A program made the position numbers and the translations under genes. Shown here one piece after another: positions 12,710 through 21,531 of a stretch of 32,000 bases of DNA (position 1 is the first letter of the stretch; every line of letters starts with the position of its first letter). The stretch covers positions 2,340,001 to 2,372,000 of the forward strand of contig NZ_CP011034.1 of NCBI RefSeq assembly GCF_001465295.1. Direction: 5' to 3'. This DNA is from Pseudoalteromonas translucida KMM 520 (GTDB lineage Bacteria > Pseudomonadota > Gammaproteobacteria > Enterobacterales > Alteromonadaceae). The notes under the pieces are model-generated. The model was not told the origin of the DNA and did not search any database. It saw only the letters and a program-made list of their open reading frames with translations.

Positions 12710-13540
12710 ATGTCAGATTTAAAAACGATGATCGAAAACGCCTGGGATAACCGCGATAGCATTAGCCCAAGCACAGTATCTGTTGAAGTAAAGCAAGCCA
12801 TTATTGACGCGCTTGACCTGCTAGACAGTGGCGCAGCACGCGTTGCTGAAAAAATATCGGGTGAATGGGTAGTACACCAATGGCTTAAAAAAGCGGTTTT
12901 ACTGTCGTTCCGTATTCGCGAAAACCAAGCAATGGACGATGGCGTAAATCAGTTTTACGACAAAGTACCACTTAAATTTAGCGACTACACGCCGGAGCAA
13001 TTTAAACAAGGCGGCATGCGCGTAGTGCCTAATGCTGTTGCGCGTAAAGGCAGCTTTGTAGGTAAAAACGTAGTACTTATGCCATCGTATGTAAACATTG
13101 GCGCATACGTTGACGACGGCACCATGGTTGATACATGGGCCACTGTAGGCTCGTGTGCACAAATTGGTAAGAACGTACACTTATCAGGTGGCGTAGGCAT
13201 AGGCGGTGTTTTAGAGCCATTACAAGCTAACCCAACCATCATCGAAGACAACTGTTTTATCGGCGCTCGCTCTGAAATTGTTGAAGGCGTAATTGTTGAA
13301 GAAGGCGCGGTAATTTCAATGGGCGTTTACATCAGCCAAAGTACCCGTATTTATGACCGTGAAACCGGCGAAATTCACTACGGCCGCGTACCAGCAGGCG
13401 CAGTAGTAGTCCCTGGCGCACTACCTTCAAAGGACGGTAGCCACAGCCTTTATGCTGCAATTATAGTGAAAAAAGTAGATAAGCAAACTCGCGAAAAAGT
13501 AGGCATCAACGCCCTGCTTCGCTCAATTGATGAAGAATAG
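12710..13540 (+). CDS. dapD: 2,3,4,5-tetrahydropyridine-2,6-dicarboxylate N-succinyltransferase
   Basis: 276-aa ORF with a [21 protein letters not shown] and the hexapeptide-repeat C-terminal half match E. coli DapD (274 aa). Confidence 0.95.
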
Positions 13541-13543
13541 CTA

Positions 13544-13577
13544 GTAGGTTGGGCTGAGTGCAACGAAACCCAACTAC
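13544..13577 (+). repeat. REP-like element (GTAG + imperfect palindrome), copy 1
   Basis: The sequence is GTAGGTTGGGCTGAGTGCAACGAAACCCAACTAC. GTAG(G)TTGGG pairs with CCCAACTAC, and the 5' GTAG is as in classical REP sequences. An inverted, diverged second copy lies at 14756-14779. Confidence 0.55.
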
Positions 13578-13620
13578 ACTTTAAAGTTAAGTGTTTTAGC
13601 TGAACTTTAATTGTATATTT

Positions 13621-13654
13621 AAAAGCTCTAGACCATTAGTCTAGAGCTTTTTTG
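13621..13654. terminator. Bidirectional terminator shared by dapD (+) and the orphan gene (-)
   Basis: In AAAAGCTCTAGAC-CATTA-GTCTAGAGCTTTTTT the arms form an 11-bp perfect stem, flanked by an A-run on one side and a T-run on the other. It ends 1 nt before the stop of the minus-strand ORF. Confidence 0.7.
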
Positions 13655-13655
13655 T

Positions 13656-14633
13656 TTAAAAATTTAAATCCATTACTGATGTATATTTAGTAGTTAAATT
13701 ATTCATCTCTTCTGCTGTATTATTTGAATTAATCAACTTAATTAGCTCTTTAAGTTCTGGAATTACACCCTGTTGGAAATTAAACTTATCTTGGTATGTT
13801 TTTAAGAATTCAAGGGTACTTAATAACTCTTTCACTTTTGTACTTTCACCAATAAAGTAACCTTTATCGTGGTGAAAATCTGTTATCTCATCAAACATTG
13901 AATTTAAATATGAGTAACCAATATGGTGGTTTTTTATTTTTTCACTTGAATTAGTAATTAGATTAGTTATCAAATTAACTTTGATTATGAGCTGAGTTTC
14001 TATCCTTGATGATAAATATTTTATTTTTTCATCTAAACTCCCTTCTGATAAGTTATGAAATAACTCTGCTTTAGAAAACCCAATTAAGCATTTGTCGCCG
14101 TATATTTTGGAATCCAAGCACCTTTCAATAACCTTCTCAGATTGTTCTATTCTTTTGAAAATATGTTCTTCATGGGCGCTTTGCTGCATAAGTCGAATTT
14201 GTTCTTCTGTTGCAGAAGCTTGCTTTTCATTAGCTGCTATTAATTTTTCAGTCAATACTCGCTGTTGCTTAGACTCATCTACTTGCAGCTCAAATGACTC
14301 TTTCGCTATTTTTTCTTGCTCTAAATTATTTTTTGCAGTTTCAGAAGCACTTTTGGCTGAATTAGCTAACTCTCTTTGCTGTAAAGCTAATGAATATATT
14401 AATAAAACCATTGTAAAAAAAGTAAGTAATGGATTTAAAACCCCACCGAAAAAATCCCCCATAGCTCCCCATTCACCTCTATTGGCAGGAGGTTTAAACC
14501 AAGAAAAAGTGCTGTTATATGTGTAGAAAGCCAAAAATGTTGCACCAAACACTATTAAAAGAGTTAGTGCTATAGCTACTTTTGAATTATTTTCGATAAA
14601 TTTAAGTAGTTGATTCTCTGTTTTTTCGTTCAT
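13656..14633 (-). CDS. Orphan inner-membrane protein: 2 TM helices + long coiled coil + unassigned helical C-terminal domain; putAbiC-like N-terminal module (candidate abortive-infection/defence effector)
   Basis: 325-aa ORF with an AAGGA SD 7 nt before the ATG. TM1 spans about residues 18-39 and TM2 about residues 61-84. The motif WGAMGDFFGGVLNPLLTFFTMVLLIYSLALQQREL precedes an E/K/Q-rich heptad region (about residues 85-165). The gene is very AT-rich compared with its neighbours. The family assignment is from memory only. Confidence 0.8.
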   Translation of the reverse strand: MNEKTENQLLKFIENNSKVAIALTLLIVFGATFLAFYTYNSTFSWFKPPANRGEWGAMGDFFGGVLNPLLTFFTMVLLIYSLALQQRELANSAKSASETAKNNLEQEKIAKESFELQVDESKQQRVLTEKLIAANEKQASATEEQIRLMQQSAHEEHIFKRIEQSEKVIERCLDSKIYGDKCLIGFSKAELFHNLSEGSLDEKIKYLSSRIETQLIIKVNLITNLITNSSEKIKNHHIGYSYLNSMFDEITDFHHDKGYFIGESTKVKELLSTLEFLKTYQDKFNFQQGVIPELKELIKLINSNNTAEEMNNLTTKYTSVMDLNF

Positions 14634-14755
14634 GTATATCCTTATAAATTTGTATTTATCTCATATTTAATAATGAGAGCGCATTTTAGTCTAGCTTTTA
14701 AAGAAATAGCCAAAAATTAAGTTGTAAGCTAAATACTATAAATAGCTAAACCATA

Positions 14756-14779
14756 GGGTTTCGCTTCACTCAACCTACG
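14756..14779 (-). repeat. REP-like element, copy 2 (inverted relative to copy 1, degenerate)
   Basis: The minus strand reads CGTAGGTTGAGTGAAGCGAAACCC. Aligned to copy 1 it matches 21 of 23 positions with one 4-nt indel (GGCT). TAGGTT can pair with AACC(C)TA. Confidence 0.5.
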
Positions 14780-14828
14780 CCGATAAAATTAACGCCGAGT
14801 TACAGCTCATCGATAGCTCGCCCTCCCT

Positions 14829-14863
14829 AAAAAGCAAAAAGGCACTTAAAAATAAGTGCCTTT
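14829..14863 (-). terminator. phhB terminator
   Basis: AAAGGCACTTA (14838-14848) pairs with TAAGTGCCTTT (14853-14863), an 11-bp stem. On the minus strand it is followed by TTTTTGCTTTTT. It lies 26 nt downstream of the phhB stop. Confidence 0.65.
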
Positions 14864-14888
14864 GTTGGGTTGCTCAATTAGTTTGGTA

Positions 14889-15233
14889 TTACAGCGCGTT
14901 AAATACGTCATCTGTTTTAGCTGCGCAAATAAAATCGTTTTTGTGTAGGCCTTTAATTGAATGGCTCCACCATGTAACCGTTACTTTGCCCCACTCGGTT
15001 AATAAACCTGGGTGATGGCCTTCGTCTTCAGCCATGTCGCCTACTTTGTTAGTAAACGCGATAGCTTGTTTAAAGTTTTTAAATTTGTAAACACGCTCAA
15101 GCTGCATAATGCCATCGCGTACTTCAGGTACCCAATCAGGGATTTTGGTAATTAATTGCGCTAGCTCTTCGTCTGATACTTTTGGCGCATCGGCATGACA
15201 GGCTTCGCATTTTTGTGCACTTAATGAAGACAT
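14889..15233 (-). CDS. phhB: Pterin-4a-carbinolamine dehydratase
   Basis: 114-aa ORF with the PCD/DCoH core [31 protein letters not shown]. It lies immediately downstream of phhA (39-nt gap), the classical phhAB pair. Confidence 0.92.
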
Positions 15234-17647: not shown

Positions 17648-18673
17648 TTATTCAGTTGTCTCGGGCTTTTTACGGCTAATAATTTTACTAGCAATATTTT
17701 GTACCGTACTTTTTAATAAATTGCGTTTATTTTCAAGCCGAGGTAATGGGCGGCTTAATTCCATTGCTTTGTAGCCAATGCGCGCGGTAAATATACCGGC
17801 ACTTAAGCCCTGTGCTGCTCGCCCCGAAAGTTTACCTAATAACTCGGCGCTTAGTGCGGTTGCAGCTAAATCAGAAATAAGCTCGGCACTGCCCACAAAC
17901 ATTACTTGCTTTATTAGCATGCGGTACAATTTTATGCGACTCGCGTAACCAAAACCAATCCCGTAAATCTTCCCTATTTGTTCTATTAACTTAGTACCGC
18001 GCCACAGCACAGCCATCATATCCACCAGCGCCAGCGGGCTAAGCGCAACCAGTAACGCCGACTCGGTTGCAAAGCGATTAATGAGCTTTTTAGCTTGGGT
18101 GTCTTGCGTTATTAATAAACTATTGGCGTATAGCGTCATTATTTCTTTATCGCTGTGGTGCGTTGCAACTTGATTTTTAAAGGTTTCAAAGTTATCGAGT
18201 TGCTGGTGTTTATTTAGTTTTTCAAGCCAAGGCAGTGCGCCGCCTACTTGTTCGCTATTTAACAGTCTGTCGGCTTCATGGCGATATAACTGGTTACGTT
18301 TTAAACTGCGCAGCATTCGGTATTCGCGCCATAATAAACGCCCTATTAGCAACACCCCACTCACTACAGCGGTTAAATATATACTGCCTAAAATAATCGA
18401 CTGCTGAAAAGCCAGTACCAATGAAAAAGCAAACTCTAGCAATACCAGCACCATAAAACTAACAACAAAAATGCCTTTGAGCGTTTGCCATTTTGACTTT
18501 TTATATACTGGCGCTAGGTCAATTTCTGGCTCTAGCATTTCGTCATTATCTTCTTGGTAATCACTTTGCCCATGCTCAATTATTTTTGCAGGCGCTAATA
18601 CAGGCTCGTTTTGCTCCATACTCTGGGTATGTATACGACGCCCTGCTTGAAACTCTTGGTTTGATTCACTCAT
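17648..18673 (-). CDS. ycjF: YcjF-family inner membrane protein (UPF0283/DUF697)
   Basis: 341-aa ORF with TM helices around residues 70-115. Its start overlaps the ycjX stop by 4 nt (ATGA). The ycjX-ycjF pairing is as in enterobacteria. Confidence 0.85.
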   Translation of the reverse strand: MSESNQEFQAGRRIHTQSMEQNEPVLAPAKIIEHGQSDYQEDNDEMLEPEIDLAPVYKKSKWQTLKGIFVVSFMVLVLLEFAFSLVLAFQQSIILGSIYLTAVVSGVLLIGRLLWREYRMLRSLKRNQLYRHEADRLLNSEQVGGALPWLEKLNKHQQLDNFETFKNQVATHHSDKEIMTLYANSLLITQDTQAKKLINRFATESALLVALSPLALVDMMAVLWRGTKLIEQIGKIYGIGFGYASRIKLYRMLIKQVMFVGSAELISDLAATALSAELLGKLSGRAAQGLSAGIFTARIGYKAMELSRPLPRLENKRNLLKSTVQNIASKIISRKKPETTE

Positions 18674-20091
18674 GCTAACTTGTCTCCTAACAGGTACTGC
18701 ATCACATGATCTAATCGAATATGTTTTAACTGCTTATCTGGGCTTGGCATTGGCGAAAACGATAAAAATTCAAACCCTTGCGCTGGCCATTCACTTTTAT
18801 TAAGCATTCTATTAGGCGGCTGTGGCGGTAAGTAGGTTAGCCAATCAGGCTCGTTAAGTGGCTTGCCGTAAATGCAGTCTAGCGTTTGGCCTTTGTCGGT
18901 TACTTGGCGCGGTTGTGTTGCGGTAATTGACGACATAGCCATGGTTTCTATTTGCACACCATCAAACTTTAAATGATTACTTTGCTCGTGTACTAATGAG
19001 TCGAGCAATAGTGCTAAGTCTTTATGATGCTTAGCGGTTATATGATCTGATTTATTAGCGGCAAATAATATTTTATCTATATTAGGTTTAAATAAGCGTT
19101 TAAAAAAGCCCGATTCGCCATAACTAAAGTGCGCCAATAATTGATTAATAACGCTACTTTGCTCTTGCAAGGTTGCATGCCCTTCGTTTAAGGCACTAAG
19201 TACATCTACTAATACTATTTGGCGATCAAAATGGCGAAAGTGTTCGTTATAAAAAGGCTTTACAACTTCTTTAACGTAGGCGTTAAAGCGTTTAATTAAA
19301 TGCGCTAAGTTAGAGCCTGCAACTAGGTTATTACTATTTATCTCACCCGATACTGGAAAAAACAATAGCAATGGCGCGCCTTGTAAATCGCCTGGCATTA
19401 ACATGCGCCCAGGTTGTAGCATGGCAAGTTTGGTGTCTTTTTTAAGCCCTATCAACATGCTTTGATAAAGCTGTGCAATATGCGCAAGTGCGCTTTCATC
19501 TACCGGCGCATTTAAGTCGAGTTGCTCAACGGCTGTTAAAAACTCACTTGAGGTATGCACCCGCAAATGCTGCGTTAATAGCGGATATTGCAGCTCGCAC
19601 CACTGTGCATAACTTTGCTCCAGCATAGGTAAATCAAGCAGCCACTCGCCGGGGTAGTCAATTATATCTAAATAAAGCGTTGATTGCGGTGAAAAATGGC
19701 CACGCAGCCCAGCATTACTTTGATACTTAATAGCTAAACGCAGCGTATTTATGCGCTCGGTTGAAGGCGGCCATGTTGGCTCGCCGTCACTGGGGAGTAA
19801 CGCATTTAATGCTCGAGTATAATTAAATGTGGGCACTTTAAGCGCCTCTTGCGGCACTACTTTAGTGGCAATATGGCGGCGCTCGCGCATTACATCAAAA
19901 AAAGGCAGGTTTTTATCACTCGCTTGGCTTGTTAAGTGTTTAACTAATGCGGTAATAAACGCTGTTTTGCCGCTGCCACTCAAACCTGTTACAGCCAGTT
20001 TTACATGCTGATCTAAGCTGCGATGCAATGCTTTTTGTGCTTTGCCTTTAATACTGGTAAAGGTCTTTTTTGCAAATGAAGTACGACTCAT
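18670..20091 (-). CDS. ycjX: YcjX-family P-loop NTPase (DUF463)
   Basis: 473-aa ORF with Walker A GLSGSGKTAF near the N-terminus. Length and layout match E. coli YcjX (465 aa). It is followed by ycjF. Confidence 0.88.
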   Translation of the reverse strand: MSRTSFAKKTFTSIKGKAQKALHRSLDQHVKLAVTGLSGSGKTAFITALVKHLTSQASDKNLPFFDVMRERRHIATKVVPQEALKVPTFNYTRALNALLPSDGEPTWPPSTERINTLRLAIKYQSNAGLRGHFSPQSTLYLDIIDYPGEWLLDLPMLEQSYAQWCELQYPLLTQHLRVHTSSEFLTAVEQLDLNAPVDESALAHIAQLYQSMLIGLKKDTKLAMLQPGRMLMPGDLQGAPLLLFFPVSGEINSNNLVAGSNLAHLIKRFNAYVKEVVKPFYNEHFRHFDRQIVLVDVLSALNEGHATLQEQSSVINQLLAHFSYGESGFFKRLFKPNIDKILFAANKSDHITAKHHKDLALLLDSLVHEQSNHLKFDGVQIETMAMSSITATQPRQVTDKGQTLDCIYGKPLNEPDWLTYLPPQPPNRMLNKSEWPAQGFEFLSFSPMPSPDKQLKHIRLDHVMQYLLGDKLA

Positions 20092-20154
20092 AATGGTTTA
20101 GCACTTAGCACTTCACTTACTGTTTAATGTGTAGTTGCCGTGCTATTAAATCCT

Positions 20155-20556
20155 TTAAAGTTTGTTAATTTCACGGCTCACCGTAAATTCAGTAGAAGTA
20201 ACATAGCGTTCTATATTTTGTAGGCGCGTATCTACGCGTGTTAAACGCTCTTTTAAGTCTTGCAATGCGCGGCGCGGTGGCTCGCCTTTTTGCCATACTT
20301 TAAATTTTACTTCTAGCGGATCGCCATAGTTAGTAGAATTTGTTTTATAGGCGCTAGTGGGTTCTTTTTTATCTAAAATAAACCAGGCTGCAATATACGC
20401 TACCACAAATAAAGGGCCGCCAGTTAGTAATACCGCACTAACAAATATAATACGAACTAACCATAATTCCATATTAAAATAATCGCTTAGCCCAGCGCAT
20501 ACGCCGGCTATTTTTCCGCGCTGCGGATCTCTTAATAATTCGCGTTTGGTACTCAT
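20155..20556 (-). CDS. pspC: Phage shock protein C
   Basis: 133-aa ORF. The PspC domain GKIAGVCAGLSDYFNMELWLVRIIFV is followed by one TM helix, and the C-terminal leucine-zipper-like region contains ERYVTS (E. coli has MERYVTSDTF). It overlaps the pspB stop by 4 nt. Confidence 0.9.
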   Translation of the reverse strand: MSTKRELLRDPQRGKIAGVCAGLSDYFNMELWLVRIIFVSAVLLTGGPLFVVAYIAAWFILDKKEPTSAYKTNSTNYGDPLEVKFKVWQKGEPPRRALQDLKERLTRVDTRLQNIERYVTSTEFTVSREINKL

Positions 20557-20786
20557 ACTTTACGCCTCCACTGTGGCGACTCTTGATCAAGTAATGCTTC
20601 GAGTGTTTCGACTCGATCAGCCATTTTTTCGGCTTTTTGAGCAAGCTCTAACAACTGGCGATGCTCGTGTTCACTTAACCCTTGGCTTACTTGTTTTTTG
20701 CTACGATAGTGTAAAATTAGCCACAAAGGCGCGACAAAAATCATAAATAAAATAAATGGTGCTACGAGTATTTCTGGATCAAACAT
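20553..20786 (-). CDS. pspB: Phage shock protein B
   Basis: 77-aa ORF with a single N-terminal TM helix followed by LWLILHYRSK ... LEALLD, closely parallel to E. coli PspB (74 aa). Confidence 0.88.
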   Translation of the reverse strand: MFDPEILVAPFILFMIFVAPLWLILHYRSKKQVSQGLSEHEHRQLLELAQKAEKMADRVETLEALLDQESPQWRRKV

Positions 20787-20822
20787 AACCCTCTCCTGAC
20801 TATCCGTATTGATGTTTTAAGT

Positions 20823-20840
20823 AGGGGCACATGGGCCCCT
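20823..20840 (-). promoter_or_regulatory. GC-rich hairpin in the pspA-pspB spacer (candidate attenuator/processing-protection hairpin)
   Basis: AGGGGC (20823-20828) pairs with GCCCCT (20835-20840). There is no clear T-run. It lies 32 nt downstream of the pspA stop. Confidence 0.3.
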
Positions 20841-20871
20841 TATATTATTATTGGTATGCGTTAGCTATACG

Positions 20872-21531
20872 TTACTTATCTGCTAACTTCTTTTTAAGCT
20901 CTGCTAACTCATCGTCTACTTTTTCGTTTTTTTGCAGTTCGGCAATTTCATCTGCTAAGGTTTTTTTGCCTAAATCGTACGACTCTATTTGAGATTCTAG
21001 TCCATCTATTTTAGTTTCGTAACGCTCAAAACGATTAAGTGCATCTTCTACCTTTGAGCTATCAAGTGCTTTTTTAACTTCAAGGCGCGACTCAGCCGAA
21101 CGTTGACGTAATATAATCGCTTTTTGACGAGCTTTAGCATCTGCTAGCTTTTCTTGTAGCGTGGTTACTTCTTGTTGTAACTTTTCGATGTGTGAGCCTA
21201 CATGCTCAAGTTCACCCTCGACTGAAGCTACAGCTTCGGCTGACTTTTGCTTTTCGAGTAAAGCGGCACGTGCTAAATCGTCACGATCTTTGCTTAGCGC
21301 TAGTTCAGCTTTGTCTTGCCAATCATTCATTTGCGCTTTAAGTGTATCAACGCGACGTACTAATTCTTTTCGCTCAGCGAGTGTTTTAGCTGACGTAGAG
21401 CGAACCTCTACCAAGGTGTCTTCCATTTCTTGAATAATCAGACGAACCATTTTTTCTGGGTCTTCTGCTTTATCTAAAATGGCATTGATATTAGAATTAA
21501 CAATGTCTGCAAAACGTGAAAAAATTCCCAT
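20872..21531 (-). CDS. pspA: Phage shock protein A (PspA/IM30)
   Basis: 219-aa ORF. MGIFSRFADIVNSNINAILDKAEDPEKMVRLIIQEMEDTLVEVRSTSAK is nearly identical to the E. coli PspA N-terminus. The rest is coiled coil. Confidence 0.95.
   Translation of the reverse strand: MGIFSRFADIVNSNINAILDKAEDPEKMVRLIIQEMEDTLVEVRSTSAKTLAERKELVRRVDTLKAQMNDWQDKAELALSKDRDDLARAALLEKQKSAEAVASVEGELEHVGSHIEKLQQEVTTLQEKLADAKARQKAIILRQRSAESRLEVKKALDSSKVEDALNRFERYETKIDGLESQIESYDLGKKTLADEIAELQKNEKVDDELAELKKKLADK

Follow-up and report, generated by a model that had tools for sequence, protein, structure and literature searches.

The PTRA_a2506 gene of Pseudoalteromonas translucida KMM 520 belongs to a gene family that otherwise rides the accessory slot of Pseudoalteromonas Mu-like prophages, and the 1.17-kb low-GC cassette that carries it reached a strain-variable chromosomal slot by horizontal transfer. 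Sequence comparison shows homology between its module of two transmembrane helices (2TM) and the N-terminal part of many proteins bearing the Pfam domain putAbiC (PF16872) or matching models of the abortive infection (Abi) proteins AbiP and AbiC. We give about even weight to the reading that PTRA_a2506 is a membrane-anchored single-polypeptide phage-exclusion protein, acting by abortive infection or superinfection exclusion, with an AbiC/AbiP-like build and a different soluble domain.

The window that we analysed is a stretch of 32,000 nucleotides (contig NZ_CP011034.1, positions 2,340,001 to 2,372,000). A first-pass annotation had placed a 325-amino-acid (aa) open reading frame (ORF) at 13656-14633; these coordinates proved exact, and the frame runs from ATG to TAA on the minus strand, which the annotation had left unstated. 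We annotated the following features:

13621-13651, unstranded: perfect hairpin with a 13-bp stem, flanked on both sides by T and A runs, 3' of the PTRA_a2506 stop codon

13653-14823, unstranded: strain-specific cassette of 1.17 kb, from comparison with strains bearing other genes in the slot

13656-14633, minus strand: complete coding sequence, 325 aa plus TAA (PTRA_a2506), from the ORF call, database identity, hydropathy and dN/dS

13659-14111, minus strand: all-helical C-terminal domain, aa 175-325, starting SKIYGDKCLIGF and ending MDLNF, from the structure model and searches for relatives

14112-14366, minus strand: E/K/Q-rich stalk, aa 90-174, one predicted helix continuous with TM2, from hydropathy, the AlphaFold2 model, heptad counts and dN/dS

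14367-14474, minus strand: conserved motif and TM2, aa 54-89, EWGAMGDFFGGVLNPLLTFFTMVLLIYSLALQQREL (EWGAMGDFFGGVLNP...LQQREL), from the phrog_8999 match and the alignment of 150 relatives

14517-14582, minus strand: TM1, KVAIALTLLIVFGATFLAFYTY, aa 18-39, from hydropathy and model helix 3-39

14634-14733, minus strand: 5' region that accompanies the gene and holds its AAGGA ribosome-binding site; two orthologous loci, L001 and L004, share it at about 81% identity

PTRA_a2506 is a real gene, as established by the identity of its product to a database entry (100% to ALS33588.1/WP_058373793.1), by its orthologues (eight full-length proteins at 75-90% identity, plus two truncated or variant entries), by a dN/dS of 0.18 against the orthologue in L001, which indicates purifying selection, by the ribosome-binding site at 14639-14643, 5 nt ahead of the ATG, and by the terminator hairpin. 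The UniRef label of the protein is already 'Phage abortive infection protein'. GC content is 30.5% across the coding sequence and 23.6% at third codon positions. From its sequence and position, the hairpin would serve dapD (plus strand) and PTRA_a2506 (minus strand) jointly as a bidirectional terminator; a scan of the 14634-14733 region found no consensus sigma-70 promoter. We took the antisense ORF at 14092-14526 (plus strand) as spurious because it is nested in the gene and known proteins match the minus-strand frame only. The intergenic regions flanking PTRA_a2506 held no hidden small partner ORF and no known RNA (Rfam), and a match to BsrG there (E = 0.84) was dismissed as noise.

The anatomy proposed by the first-pass annotation, with TM1, a motif leading into TM2 and a helical C-terminal domain, is borne out: all quoted peptides are present, and hydropathy and AlphaFold2 agree. 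Kyte-Doolittle windows exceed 1.4 at aa 16-40 and 60-86 only, and the AlphaFold2 model (mean pLDDT 77.6) contains helices 3-39 and 52-174 and a helical bundle at 188-324. A near-invariant WGxxGDFFGGxLNP motif opens TM2. This arrangement suggests that the N- and C-termini both lie in the cytoplasm, with a short external loop at aa 40-58. The E/K/Q-rich segment had been described as a coiled coil; a long continuous helix is indeed predicted, but heptad periodicity is weak (hydrophobic a/d positions 5/8 at best), and heptad counting does not support a canonical coiled coil. This stalk is the most conserved part of the protein among orthologues (dN/dS about 0.1), and the tail at aa 291-325 is hypervariable (dN/dS 0.4-0.5). 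The soluble part is acidic (pI 5.6).

An exhaustive profile search (E <= 1e-3) showed that the 2TM module defines a superfamily with 3057 representative clusters, and almost all of the alignments are confined to aa 15-125 of PTRA_a2506. In an alignment of 150 distant relatives, whose overall identity is about 20-25%, residues G59, D60, G64 and P68 never vary, and by this measure the module appears too conserved to be a passive anchor. A GDxxGGxLNP-type motif is found in 158/161 collected proteins (median start, residue 59). PTRA_a2506 itself both matches the module profile and carries the invariant G-D...G...P about 60 residues from its N-terminus, the two features that delimit the superfamily, and two phage protein families, phrog_8999 (5.3e-17) and phrog_33781 (2.8e-11), match it over aa 16-105.

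The link to Abi proteins runs through these relatives. Among the best 150 of the 3057, PF16872 occurs in 37, and PADLOC models for AbiP, the commonest PADLOC match of these relatives, and AbiC match 14 and 7, respectively; one relative (P0042) is collinear over aa 17-247 with positions 5-233 of the AbiC profile. The PADLOC matches fall in the soluble region after the membrane helices. Likewise, PF16872 is a soluble domain about 100 residues past TM2 and separate from the transmembrane motif, as seen in the positive control P0011, in which the motif spans aa 71-100 and PF16872 spans aa 194-272 (65 bits; gathering score for membership, 22 bits). The first-pass annotation had called the N-terminal module putAbiC-like. 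Its 2TM homology to PF16872/AbiP/AbiC-type proteins holds, but the protein has no match to PF16872, which models the domain after TM2: neither the full sequence nor aa 1-112 or aa 175-325 gave a hit even at E <= 10.

Other profile and fold searches were equally negative. PTRA_a2506 matched none of the PADLOC families at E <= 10, the AbiC and AbiP models (PDLC02343 and PDLC02351) included, and the full-length relatives P0013, P0162 and P0164 had no PADLOC match either. NCBIfam and Pfam scans of the full protein returned nothing significant, nor did Pfam for each half, in keeping with the earlier remark that no named system is matched; weak sub-cut-off matches to DYNC2H1_AAA_dom, Elf4, MMU163, DUF4153 and MAD3 reflected composition. 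A search of PDB sequences gave no match at E <= 1, and Foldseek found nothing at E <= 0.001 when PDB and BFVD were searched with the full model or PDB with the C-terminal domain model. Designed helical repeats and unrelated bundles ranked highest among the Foldseek matches. The C-terminal domain (aa 175-325) was seen in Pseudoalteromonas only; a search for relatives that share this domain alone yielded nothing new, and we found no sequence or fold relative of it. We considered a divergent putAbiC domain here, taking as reference the extra-membrane region over which AbiC and AbiP can be superimposed, the counterpart of putAbiC. This was rejected: an iterated jackhmmer profile of that domain found 46/161 collected proteins with PTRA_a2506 unlisted at E <= 10, and hhalign of the soluble region against it gave a probability of 0.2%.

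AbiC and AbiP of Lactococcus lactis, which have two and one transmembrane helices, respectively (essential in AbiP), are Abi proteins with experimental proof; AbiP acts through its soluble domain, which binds nucleic acid (PMC13064643). AbiC (Prf; PF16872/PDLC02343) resembles PTRA_a2506 in being a single-gene product, roughly 300 aa long, whose two N-terminal transmembrane helices precede a helical extra-membrane part. Many PF16872 proteins carry a GDxxGGxLNP 2TM module like that of PTRA_a2506; lactococcal AbiC itself is likened by description, and tblastn of PLSDB with the N-terminal module and P0042 as queries gave no match in Lactococcus. Unlike AbiC, PTRA_a2506 has a stalk of about 90 residues, no PF16872 or AbiC-model match and a soluble region dissimilar to the putAbiC domain. 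AbiP (PDLC02351) is similar in build as a membrane-anchored single-gene Abi protein, but it has one transmembrane helix and a nucleic-acid-binding domain, whereas PTRA_a2506 has two helices, an acidic soluble part and no AbiP-model match. In short, PTRA_a2506 shows the N-terminal membrane anchor and helical extra-membrane region of the AbiC/AbiP group, and profile comparison finds the shared putAbiC domain absent. We found no paper in the literature on 'putAbiC' or 'PF16872'. The two-helix membrane modules of SLATT and PDC-S42 effectors, attached to or encoded beside a sensor, are alike in concept: 3/150 relatives weakly match PADLOC RTasSLATT (E about 3e-4 to 9e-4) and 1/150 matches PDC-S42, and Pfam SLATT models match neither PTRA_a2506 nor its 150 relatives at E <= 0.001.

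All distant full-length relatives belong to Mu-like prophages, with Mu G on one side and the head protease (protease I) on the other, and among the best 80 homologues in IMG/VR the gene lies between G and I in 18/18 loci where both were detected (at least 18 of the 80). This region is the anti-CRISPR and accessory locus of Mu-like phages (PMC3993853; PMC4378225). Shewanella phage MuM16-1 carries p31, a 'two helix-containing protein' 32.5% identical to PTRA_a2506 over aa 23-181, in the same slot. It belongs to the phrog_8999/phrog_33781 group, whose similarity to PTRA_a2506 is confined to the 2TM module and the first part of the stalk and whose C-terminal parts differ. Co-cargo of the slot comprises two Ser/Thr kinases (mad6/PD-T4-6, 5e-60), a type II methyltransferase (4e-34), PDC-M18A (3e-43), PDC-S42 (5e-27; encoded adjacent to the N-module gene in L038 and L041) and a type VI retron reverse transcriptase (RT; 3e-96) with its HTH protein (7e-36), a pairing seen only beside the MuM16-1 homologue. 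No retron RT or HTH gene adjoins PTRA_a2506, whose neighbours are dapD and phhB.

The G/I slot is home to counter-defence genes as well, so a gene carried there is not necessarily defensive. PTRA_a2506 could be a domesticated moron of a Mu-like prophage with a role in counter-defence, in the timing of lysis or assembly at the membrane or in modulation of the host envelope, and the chromosomal copy a relic, stranded and retained for some host function at the membrane. The relatives do lie among the head-morphogenesis genes, often sharing the strand of the late genes; both matched PHROG families are annotated as of unknown function, and PTRA_a2506 itself matches no defence profile. We nevertheless consider this account unlikely: the neighbours in the slot are defence rather than counter-defence genes, the 2TM module is common to PF16872/AbiP/AbiC-type proteins, homologues are also plasmid-borne, and the chromosomal clade is under purifying selection with no surrounding prophage.

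The earlier statement that no partner gene is adjacent holds in the window but not among relatives. In the prophages a coiled-coil protein of 405-426 aa with two C-terminal transmembrane helices is encoded 2-46 nt upstream of the relative, and some chromosomal orthologues have a tetratricopeptide repeat (TPR) gene next downstream. PTRA_a2506 might come from a two-gene membrane system and have lost the other gene, with the solitary chromosomal copy inactive or reliant on an unlinked partner. Tight gene pairs in four Pseudoalteromonas Mu-like prophages (L021, L022, L023 and L028) and three viral contigs (L033, L044 and L089) favour such a loss, as do an N-module gene on an IncX1 plasmid that overlaps the upstream ORF and the position of p31 beside the type VI retron, where it has been discussed together with the small auxiliary genes found with retrons of this type (PMC8541194). 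We judge it distinctly improbable, given that many N-module genes stand alone in the Mu slot, that AbiC and AbiP act singly (PMC13064643), that partnerless orthologues persist in several genomes (dN/dS 0.18) and that tblastn detected no remnant of the prophage partner or the TPR gene in the window.

The chromosomal slot lies between dapD and phhB and varies among strains. Sequence outside the cassette (13400-13652 and 14824-15000) is 89-97% common to strains with alternative content, which comprises a BCCT transporter along with an orphan gene of 201 aa; tblastn found no BCCT remnant in the window. The cassette has a GC content of about 30%, against 41-47% (about 43%) in its surroundings. A lineage-specific inner-membrane protein of an ordinary sort, which serves housekeeping or a niche, has nothing to do with phages and sits among metabolic genes by chance, would fit the immediate neighbours (glnD, dapD, phhB, phhA and a PF01053 gene for a PLP enzyme of Cys/Met metabolism), the syntenic position in several Pseudoalteromonas genomes and the lack of a defence profile match, but it is very improbable for a gene that is missing, with others in its place, from strains with an identical PhhB, lies 12 GC points below its flanks, evolves about five times faster at the protein level than its neighbours (dN 0.138 versus 0.02-0.05) and has its relatives overwhelmingly on phages, prophages and plasmids. 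As for the context of the homologues, which the first-pass annotation had named as informative, the phage accessory slot holds known defence genes and the chromosomal gene is a strain-variable low-GC insertion; the chromosomal slot yielded no recognised defence gene (Pfam matched none of the orphans called there, and PADLOC did not match the TPR gene).

An anti-phage role for PTRA_a2506 is plausible because its 2TM module is common to AbiC/AbiP-type proteins and recurs in the Mu slot, although its tail domain is unique. As a phage-exclusion protein, it might use the C-terminal domain, chiefly the fast-evolving tail, to recognise either a protein of the phage or a state induced by infection. 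The stalk would relay the signal, probably within an oligomer, to the conserved 2TM module, which may perturb the inner membrane through an ion leak or loss of proton-motive force; alternatively, the module may block a membrane-linked step of infection, and either way phage development would halt. We purely infer that the C-terminal domain acts as a sensor, since the soluble part is neither related to the putAbiC domain nor matched by any fold. Counted against the anti-phage reading are the lack of a direct Abi or defence profile match in Pfam, PADLOC and NCBIfam, the contrast between AbiP, which works through nucleic-acid binding, and the acidic soluble part of PTRA_a2506, and the missing counterpart of the conserved upstream partner of the prophage relatives, in a chromosomal slot with no recognised defence gene.

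We put forward a broader proposal tentatively and regard it as somewhat doubtful: the GDxxGGxLNP 2TM module may be a dedicated and very widespread membrane effector cassette, present in thousands of protein clusters from phages, plasmids and chromosomes, coupled by evolution to interchangeable cytoplasmic sensors of which putAbiC is just one, and a signature cargo of the Mu G/I slot. PTRA_a2506 would then define both a new sensor domain and an unnamed single-gene defence family, which Pseudoalteromonas chromosomes acquired from Mu-like prophages. If it has no phage phenotype, PTRA_a2506 is another lineage-specific membrane orphan. If the anti-phage reading is true, AbiC and AbiP, lactococcal systems known for 30 years, would be two samples of a far larger modular superfamily whose conserved part is the 2TM membrane module and not the Pfam putAbiC domain used by current detection tools, and searches of the DefenseFinder or PADLOC type would overlook most members, PTRA_a2506 among them. 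Mutagenesis of the effector step can start directly from the four invariant residues (G, D, G and P), and specificity can be approached through the hypervariable C-terminal tail. These results extend the known role of the G/I slot past anti-CRISPRs: Mu-like phages of marine gammaproteobacteria carry such membrane proteins there, along with retrons, kinases and restriction-modification genes.

The gene that the first-pass annotation had placed at 13656-14633 is present exactly there, on the minus strand, and all of the peptide strings quoted from it are found in the translation. Its product is 100% identical to PTRA_a2506 (ALS33588.1/WP_058373793.1) of Pseudoalteromonas translucida KMM 520.

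PTRA_a2506 and its flanking genes
12710-13540, plus strand, dapD
13656-14633, minus strand, PTRA_a2506, coding sequence read from ATG to TAA, 325 aa
14889-15233, minus strand, phhB

PTRA_a2506 is a genuine gene. An AAGGA ribosome-binding site precedes it, a terminator (a perfect 13-bp hairpin) lies directly 3' of the stop codon, and it has eight full-length orthologues of 75-90% identity as well as two truncated or variant entries; dN/dS against the orthologue at comparison locus L001 is 0.18. By eye, we also observed an inverted repeat (TCTCAT-N8-ATGAGA, 14659-14678) in the 5' UTR, flanked by the ribosome-binding site and a block of conserved sequence further upstream; it may serve as an operator or fold into an RNA hairpin.

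The first-pass annotation had linked the motif behind the first transmembrane (TM) helix to putAbiC (PF16872) proteins. The motif is indeed common to P0011, a PF16872 protein that carries it at aa 71-100 and is 39% identical to aa 53-128 of PTRA_a2506, but the PF16872 match of P0011 falls at aa 194-272 and not over the motif. As the two are separate, PF16872 models a soluble domain that follows the membrane hairpin. PTRA_a2506 has no PF16872 match even at E <= 10, and the searches proposed against Pfam and PADLOC, together with NCBIfam, matched it to no family. It does match phrog_8999 (5e-17) and phrog_33781 (3e-11), two PHROG families lacking assigned function. When a profile of the putAbiC domain was iterated, it recovered 46 of 161 collected proteins with PTRA_a2506 unlisted at E <= 10, and hhalign of the soluble region of its family against that domain gave a probability of 0.2%.

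A profile search run exhaustively against 1.84 billion representatives yielded 3,057 matches at E <= 1e-3, nearly all covering just aa 15-125. When the best 150 of these were aligned (~20-25% identity), G59, D60, G64 and P68 were invariant and G56, G63, L66, N67 and L78 near-invariant, with the consensus WGxFGDFFGGxLNP...LQxxEL; across the collected proteins with this N-terminal module, the median start of the motif is residue 59. The two-TM module is far too conserved for a mere anchor. PF16872 is present in 37 of the 150, and PADLOC matched AbiP in 14 and AbiC in 7. In the ten PF16872-positive relatives examined, the AbiP/AbiC matches fall in the soluble region after the TM segments, except in P0042, aa 17-247 of which align with positions 5-233 of the AbiC profile. 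As judged from these alignments, the module is homologous to the N termini of AbiC/AbiP-type proteins and forms the shared N terminus of a superfamily of modular build, whose C-terminal options are several and include the AbiC/AbiP-type soluble domain.

According to a 2026 review (PMC13064643), there are two TM helices in AbiC and a single one in AbiP; their extra-membrane parts superimpose, AbiP binds RNA and ssDNA and requires its TM segment, and the mechanism of both is unresolved. PTRA_a2506 is built like both but fails the tests that define them, having neither a match to PF16872 or the PADLOC HMMs nor the soluble domain that the two share, and so ought not to be classed as AbiC. It fits best as a member of an unnamed, phrog_8999-like GDxxGGxLNP two-TM superfamily, and one whose C-terminal domain had not been described before.

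Only two segments reach TM-grade hydropathy, aa 16-40 and aa 60-86, in agreement with the two helices originally read. An AlphaFold2 model from an alignment of 12 family sequences (mean pLDDT 77.6, pTM 0.55) has a helix at 3-39, a disordered loop at 39-44, a single unbroken helix at 52-174, in which TM2 passes directly into a stalk of ~90 residues, and a helical bundle at 188-324; modelled separately, the C-terminal domain reached pLDDT 80.4 and pTM 0.79. The stalk, first described as an E/K/Q-rich coiled coil, is a long helix of that composition (81 residues with 12 K+R, 15 D+E and 11 Q), but its heptad periodicity is weak and the coiled-coil label is thus not established. The entire soluble part is acidic (pI 5.6). 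The C-terminal domain had been called helical with no known motif, and is predicted to be an orphan all-alpha bundle: a PDB sequence search found no relative, and Foldseek found no match at E <= 0.001 for either the full or the domain model. Full-length relatives were found in Pseudoalteromonas only (P0013, 34% identity; P0162 and P0163, 37-38%; P0164, 29%). Among orthologues, constraint is strongest in the stalk and the core of the C-terminal domain (dN/dS about 0.1). The last 35 residues (aa 291-325, window 13659-13763) are only ~50% identical (dN/dS 0.4-0.5) and occur in two distinct versions, …KLIKSNNTAEEKSNLVAKYNSITDLMF vs …ELIELNNTQTEQDKLLDKYKSLMDGWV; because these do not track overall orthologue identity, recombination or diversifying selection in the tail is suggested.

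We hold with evenly balanced confidence that PTRA_a2506 is a putative anti-phage factor, acting by abortive infection or exclusion. The two-TM module would serve as the effector or as an indispensable device for membrane coupling, with the stalk mediating oligomerization or signal transmission and the orphan C-terminal domain, above all its variable tail, recognizing the trigger.

The distant full-length relatives all reside in Mu-like prophages of Pseudoalteromonas, each between a Mu G homologue (PF05069) and the Mu-like head protease (I). The best match in the phage collection, p31 of the Shewanella Mu-like phage MuM16-1, occupies the same slot and adjoins a complete type VI retron (RT_VI 3e-96, HTH_VI 7e-36), an element noted by the authors of that phage (PMC8541194). 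Scanning IMG/VR with the pattern GD[FY]xGGxLNP confirmed 229 genes. Recognizable Mu head-module genes were present at 29 of the best 80 loci, and wherever both G and I were detected among these 80 (18/18) the module gene lay between them; at several further IMG/VR loci it directly adjoins G. This slot is a low-GC region of genomic plasticity in Mu-like phages (PMC4378225). Known for anti-CRISPRs, it holds defence-type cargo in marine Mu-like phages. Tandem paralogues of the module in the slot (L109 and L111, 5929-6807 and 6866-7723; L091, 509-862 and 1281-2105) suggest in-place duplication or diversification of this gene type. PADLOC identified the following neighbours.

Defence-type genes at loci with the module
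L018 2951-4193, type VI retron (RT_VI and HTH_VI)
L038 1961-2890, PDC-S42 (5e-27)
L039 2437-5655, two Ser/Thr kinases (mad6 5e-60, PD-T4-6 9e-53), with a 361-aa gene alongside
L046 3341-5746, type II methyltransferase (4e-34), next to a putative restriction enzyme (weak REase match)
L067 3626-4705, PDC-M18A (3e-43)

The family is thus recurrently resident in a phage accessory hot spot, alongside bona fide defence genes. Such residence would also suit a prophage moron with a role other than defence, which, given the company these genes keep, we regard as unlikely. The module is also present on 33 plasmids. On one of them, the E. coli IncX1 plasmid pEC213_3 (L115, 4156-5711), a 242-aa module gene shares 4 nt with a hypothetical 276-aa gene upstream of it; the accessory region around this pair also encodes type I toxins of the DinQ type and a NACHT-domain protein, and ~12 similar enterobacterial plasmids (38-51 kb) match the module as well.

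Each prophage relative is preceded, 2-46 nt upstream, by a gene for a 405-426-aa protein whose N-terminal part is a long coiled coil and whose C-terminal part carries two TM helices. This protein matches phrog_29215 (a PHROG family lacking assigned function) and has no significant Pfam match and no PADLOC match.

Genes for the 405-426-aa protein
L021 8737-9954
L022 8760-9980
L023 8754-9998
L028 6730-7959

The pair possibly constitutes a two-gene membrane cassette. The earlier statement that no partner is adjacent therefore stands for the window, where we found no partner ORF, known RNA or remnant of partner genes at the locus, but not for the prophage relatives. That PTRA_a2506 is half of a two-gene membrane system with its partner missing seems improbable.

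The chromosomal neighbourhood of PTRA_a2506 is housekeeping (glnD, phhA and a Cys/Met-metabolism PLP enzyme gene, PF01053). By synteny with L008-L017 (identical gene lengths), a phage-shock/envelope-stress cluster (pspA, pspB, pspC, then DUF463 and DUF697 genes; 17648-21531) lies ~3 kb away. GC is 26-34% across the gene vs 41-47% in the flanks (coding sequence 30.5%, GC3 23.6%). In strains with identical PhhB, other genes occupy the slot: either a BCCT transporter gene with the 201-aa membrane orphan, or the 193-aa and 123-aa orphans, or an IS element.

Alternative occupants of the slot in other strains, all adjoining a BCCT transporter gene that is missing from the window
L001 9078-10160, 360-aa TPR_12 protein
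L008 8800-9405, 201-aa multi-TM orphan
L010 8830-9411 and 9461-9832, 193-aa orphan and 123-aa single-TM orphan
L015 8574-9323, IS transposase

The dapD-phhB interval behaves like a minor hot spot where membrane orphans replace one another. Orthologues of 75% identity share the slot, alongside BCCT and the TPR_12 gene; an orthologue of 85% identity has the bare layout of the window, in that dapD follows it immediately and a 108-aa gene that is probably the end of phhB precedes it. Nucleotide alignment with other strains placed the cassette limits at 13653-14823, and ~100 bp of 5' sequence moves together with the gene. Two related REP-like hairpin elements in inverted orientation (GTAGGTTGGGCTGAGTGCAACGAAACCCAAC and GTAGGTTGAGTGAAGCGAAACCC) flank the low-GC cassette, at 13544-13577, within sequence common to strains without the gene, and at 14752-14780, within the strain-specific part. 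The protein evolves ~5x faster than its neighbours (dN 0.138 vs 0.02-0.05). PTRA_a2506 is horizontally acquired, strain-variable and fast-evolving yet under selection; an ordinary lineage-specific membrane protein, as the housekeeping surroundings might suggest, is very improbable.

The idea of a defence role for this putative anti-phage factor is not new, as UniRef already names PTRA_a2506 'Phage abortive infection protein'. What is added here is a correction of what PF16872 really covers, the size and modularity of the GDxxGGxLNP two-TM superfamily, and the link of this superfamily to the Mu G/I slot.
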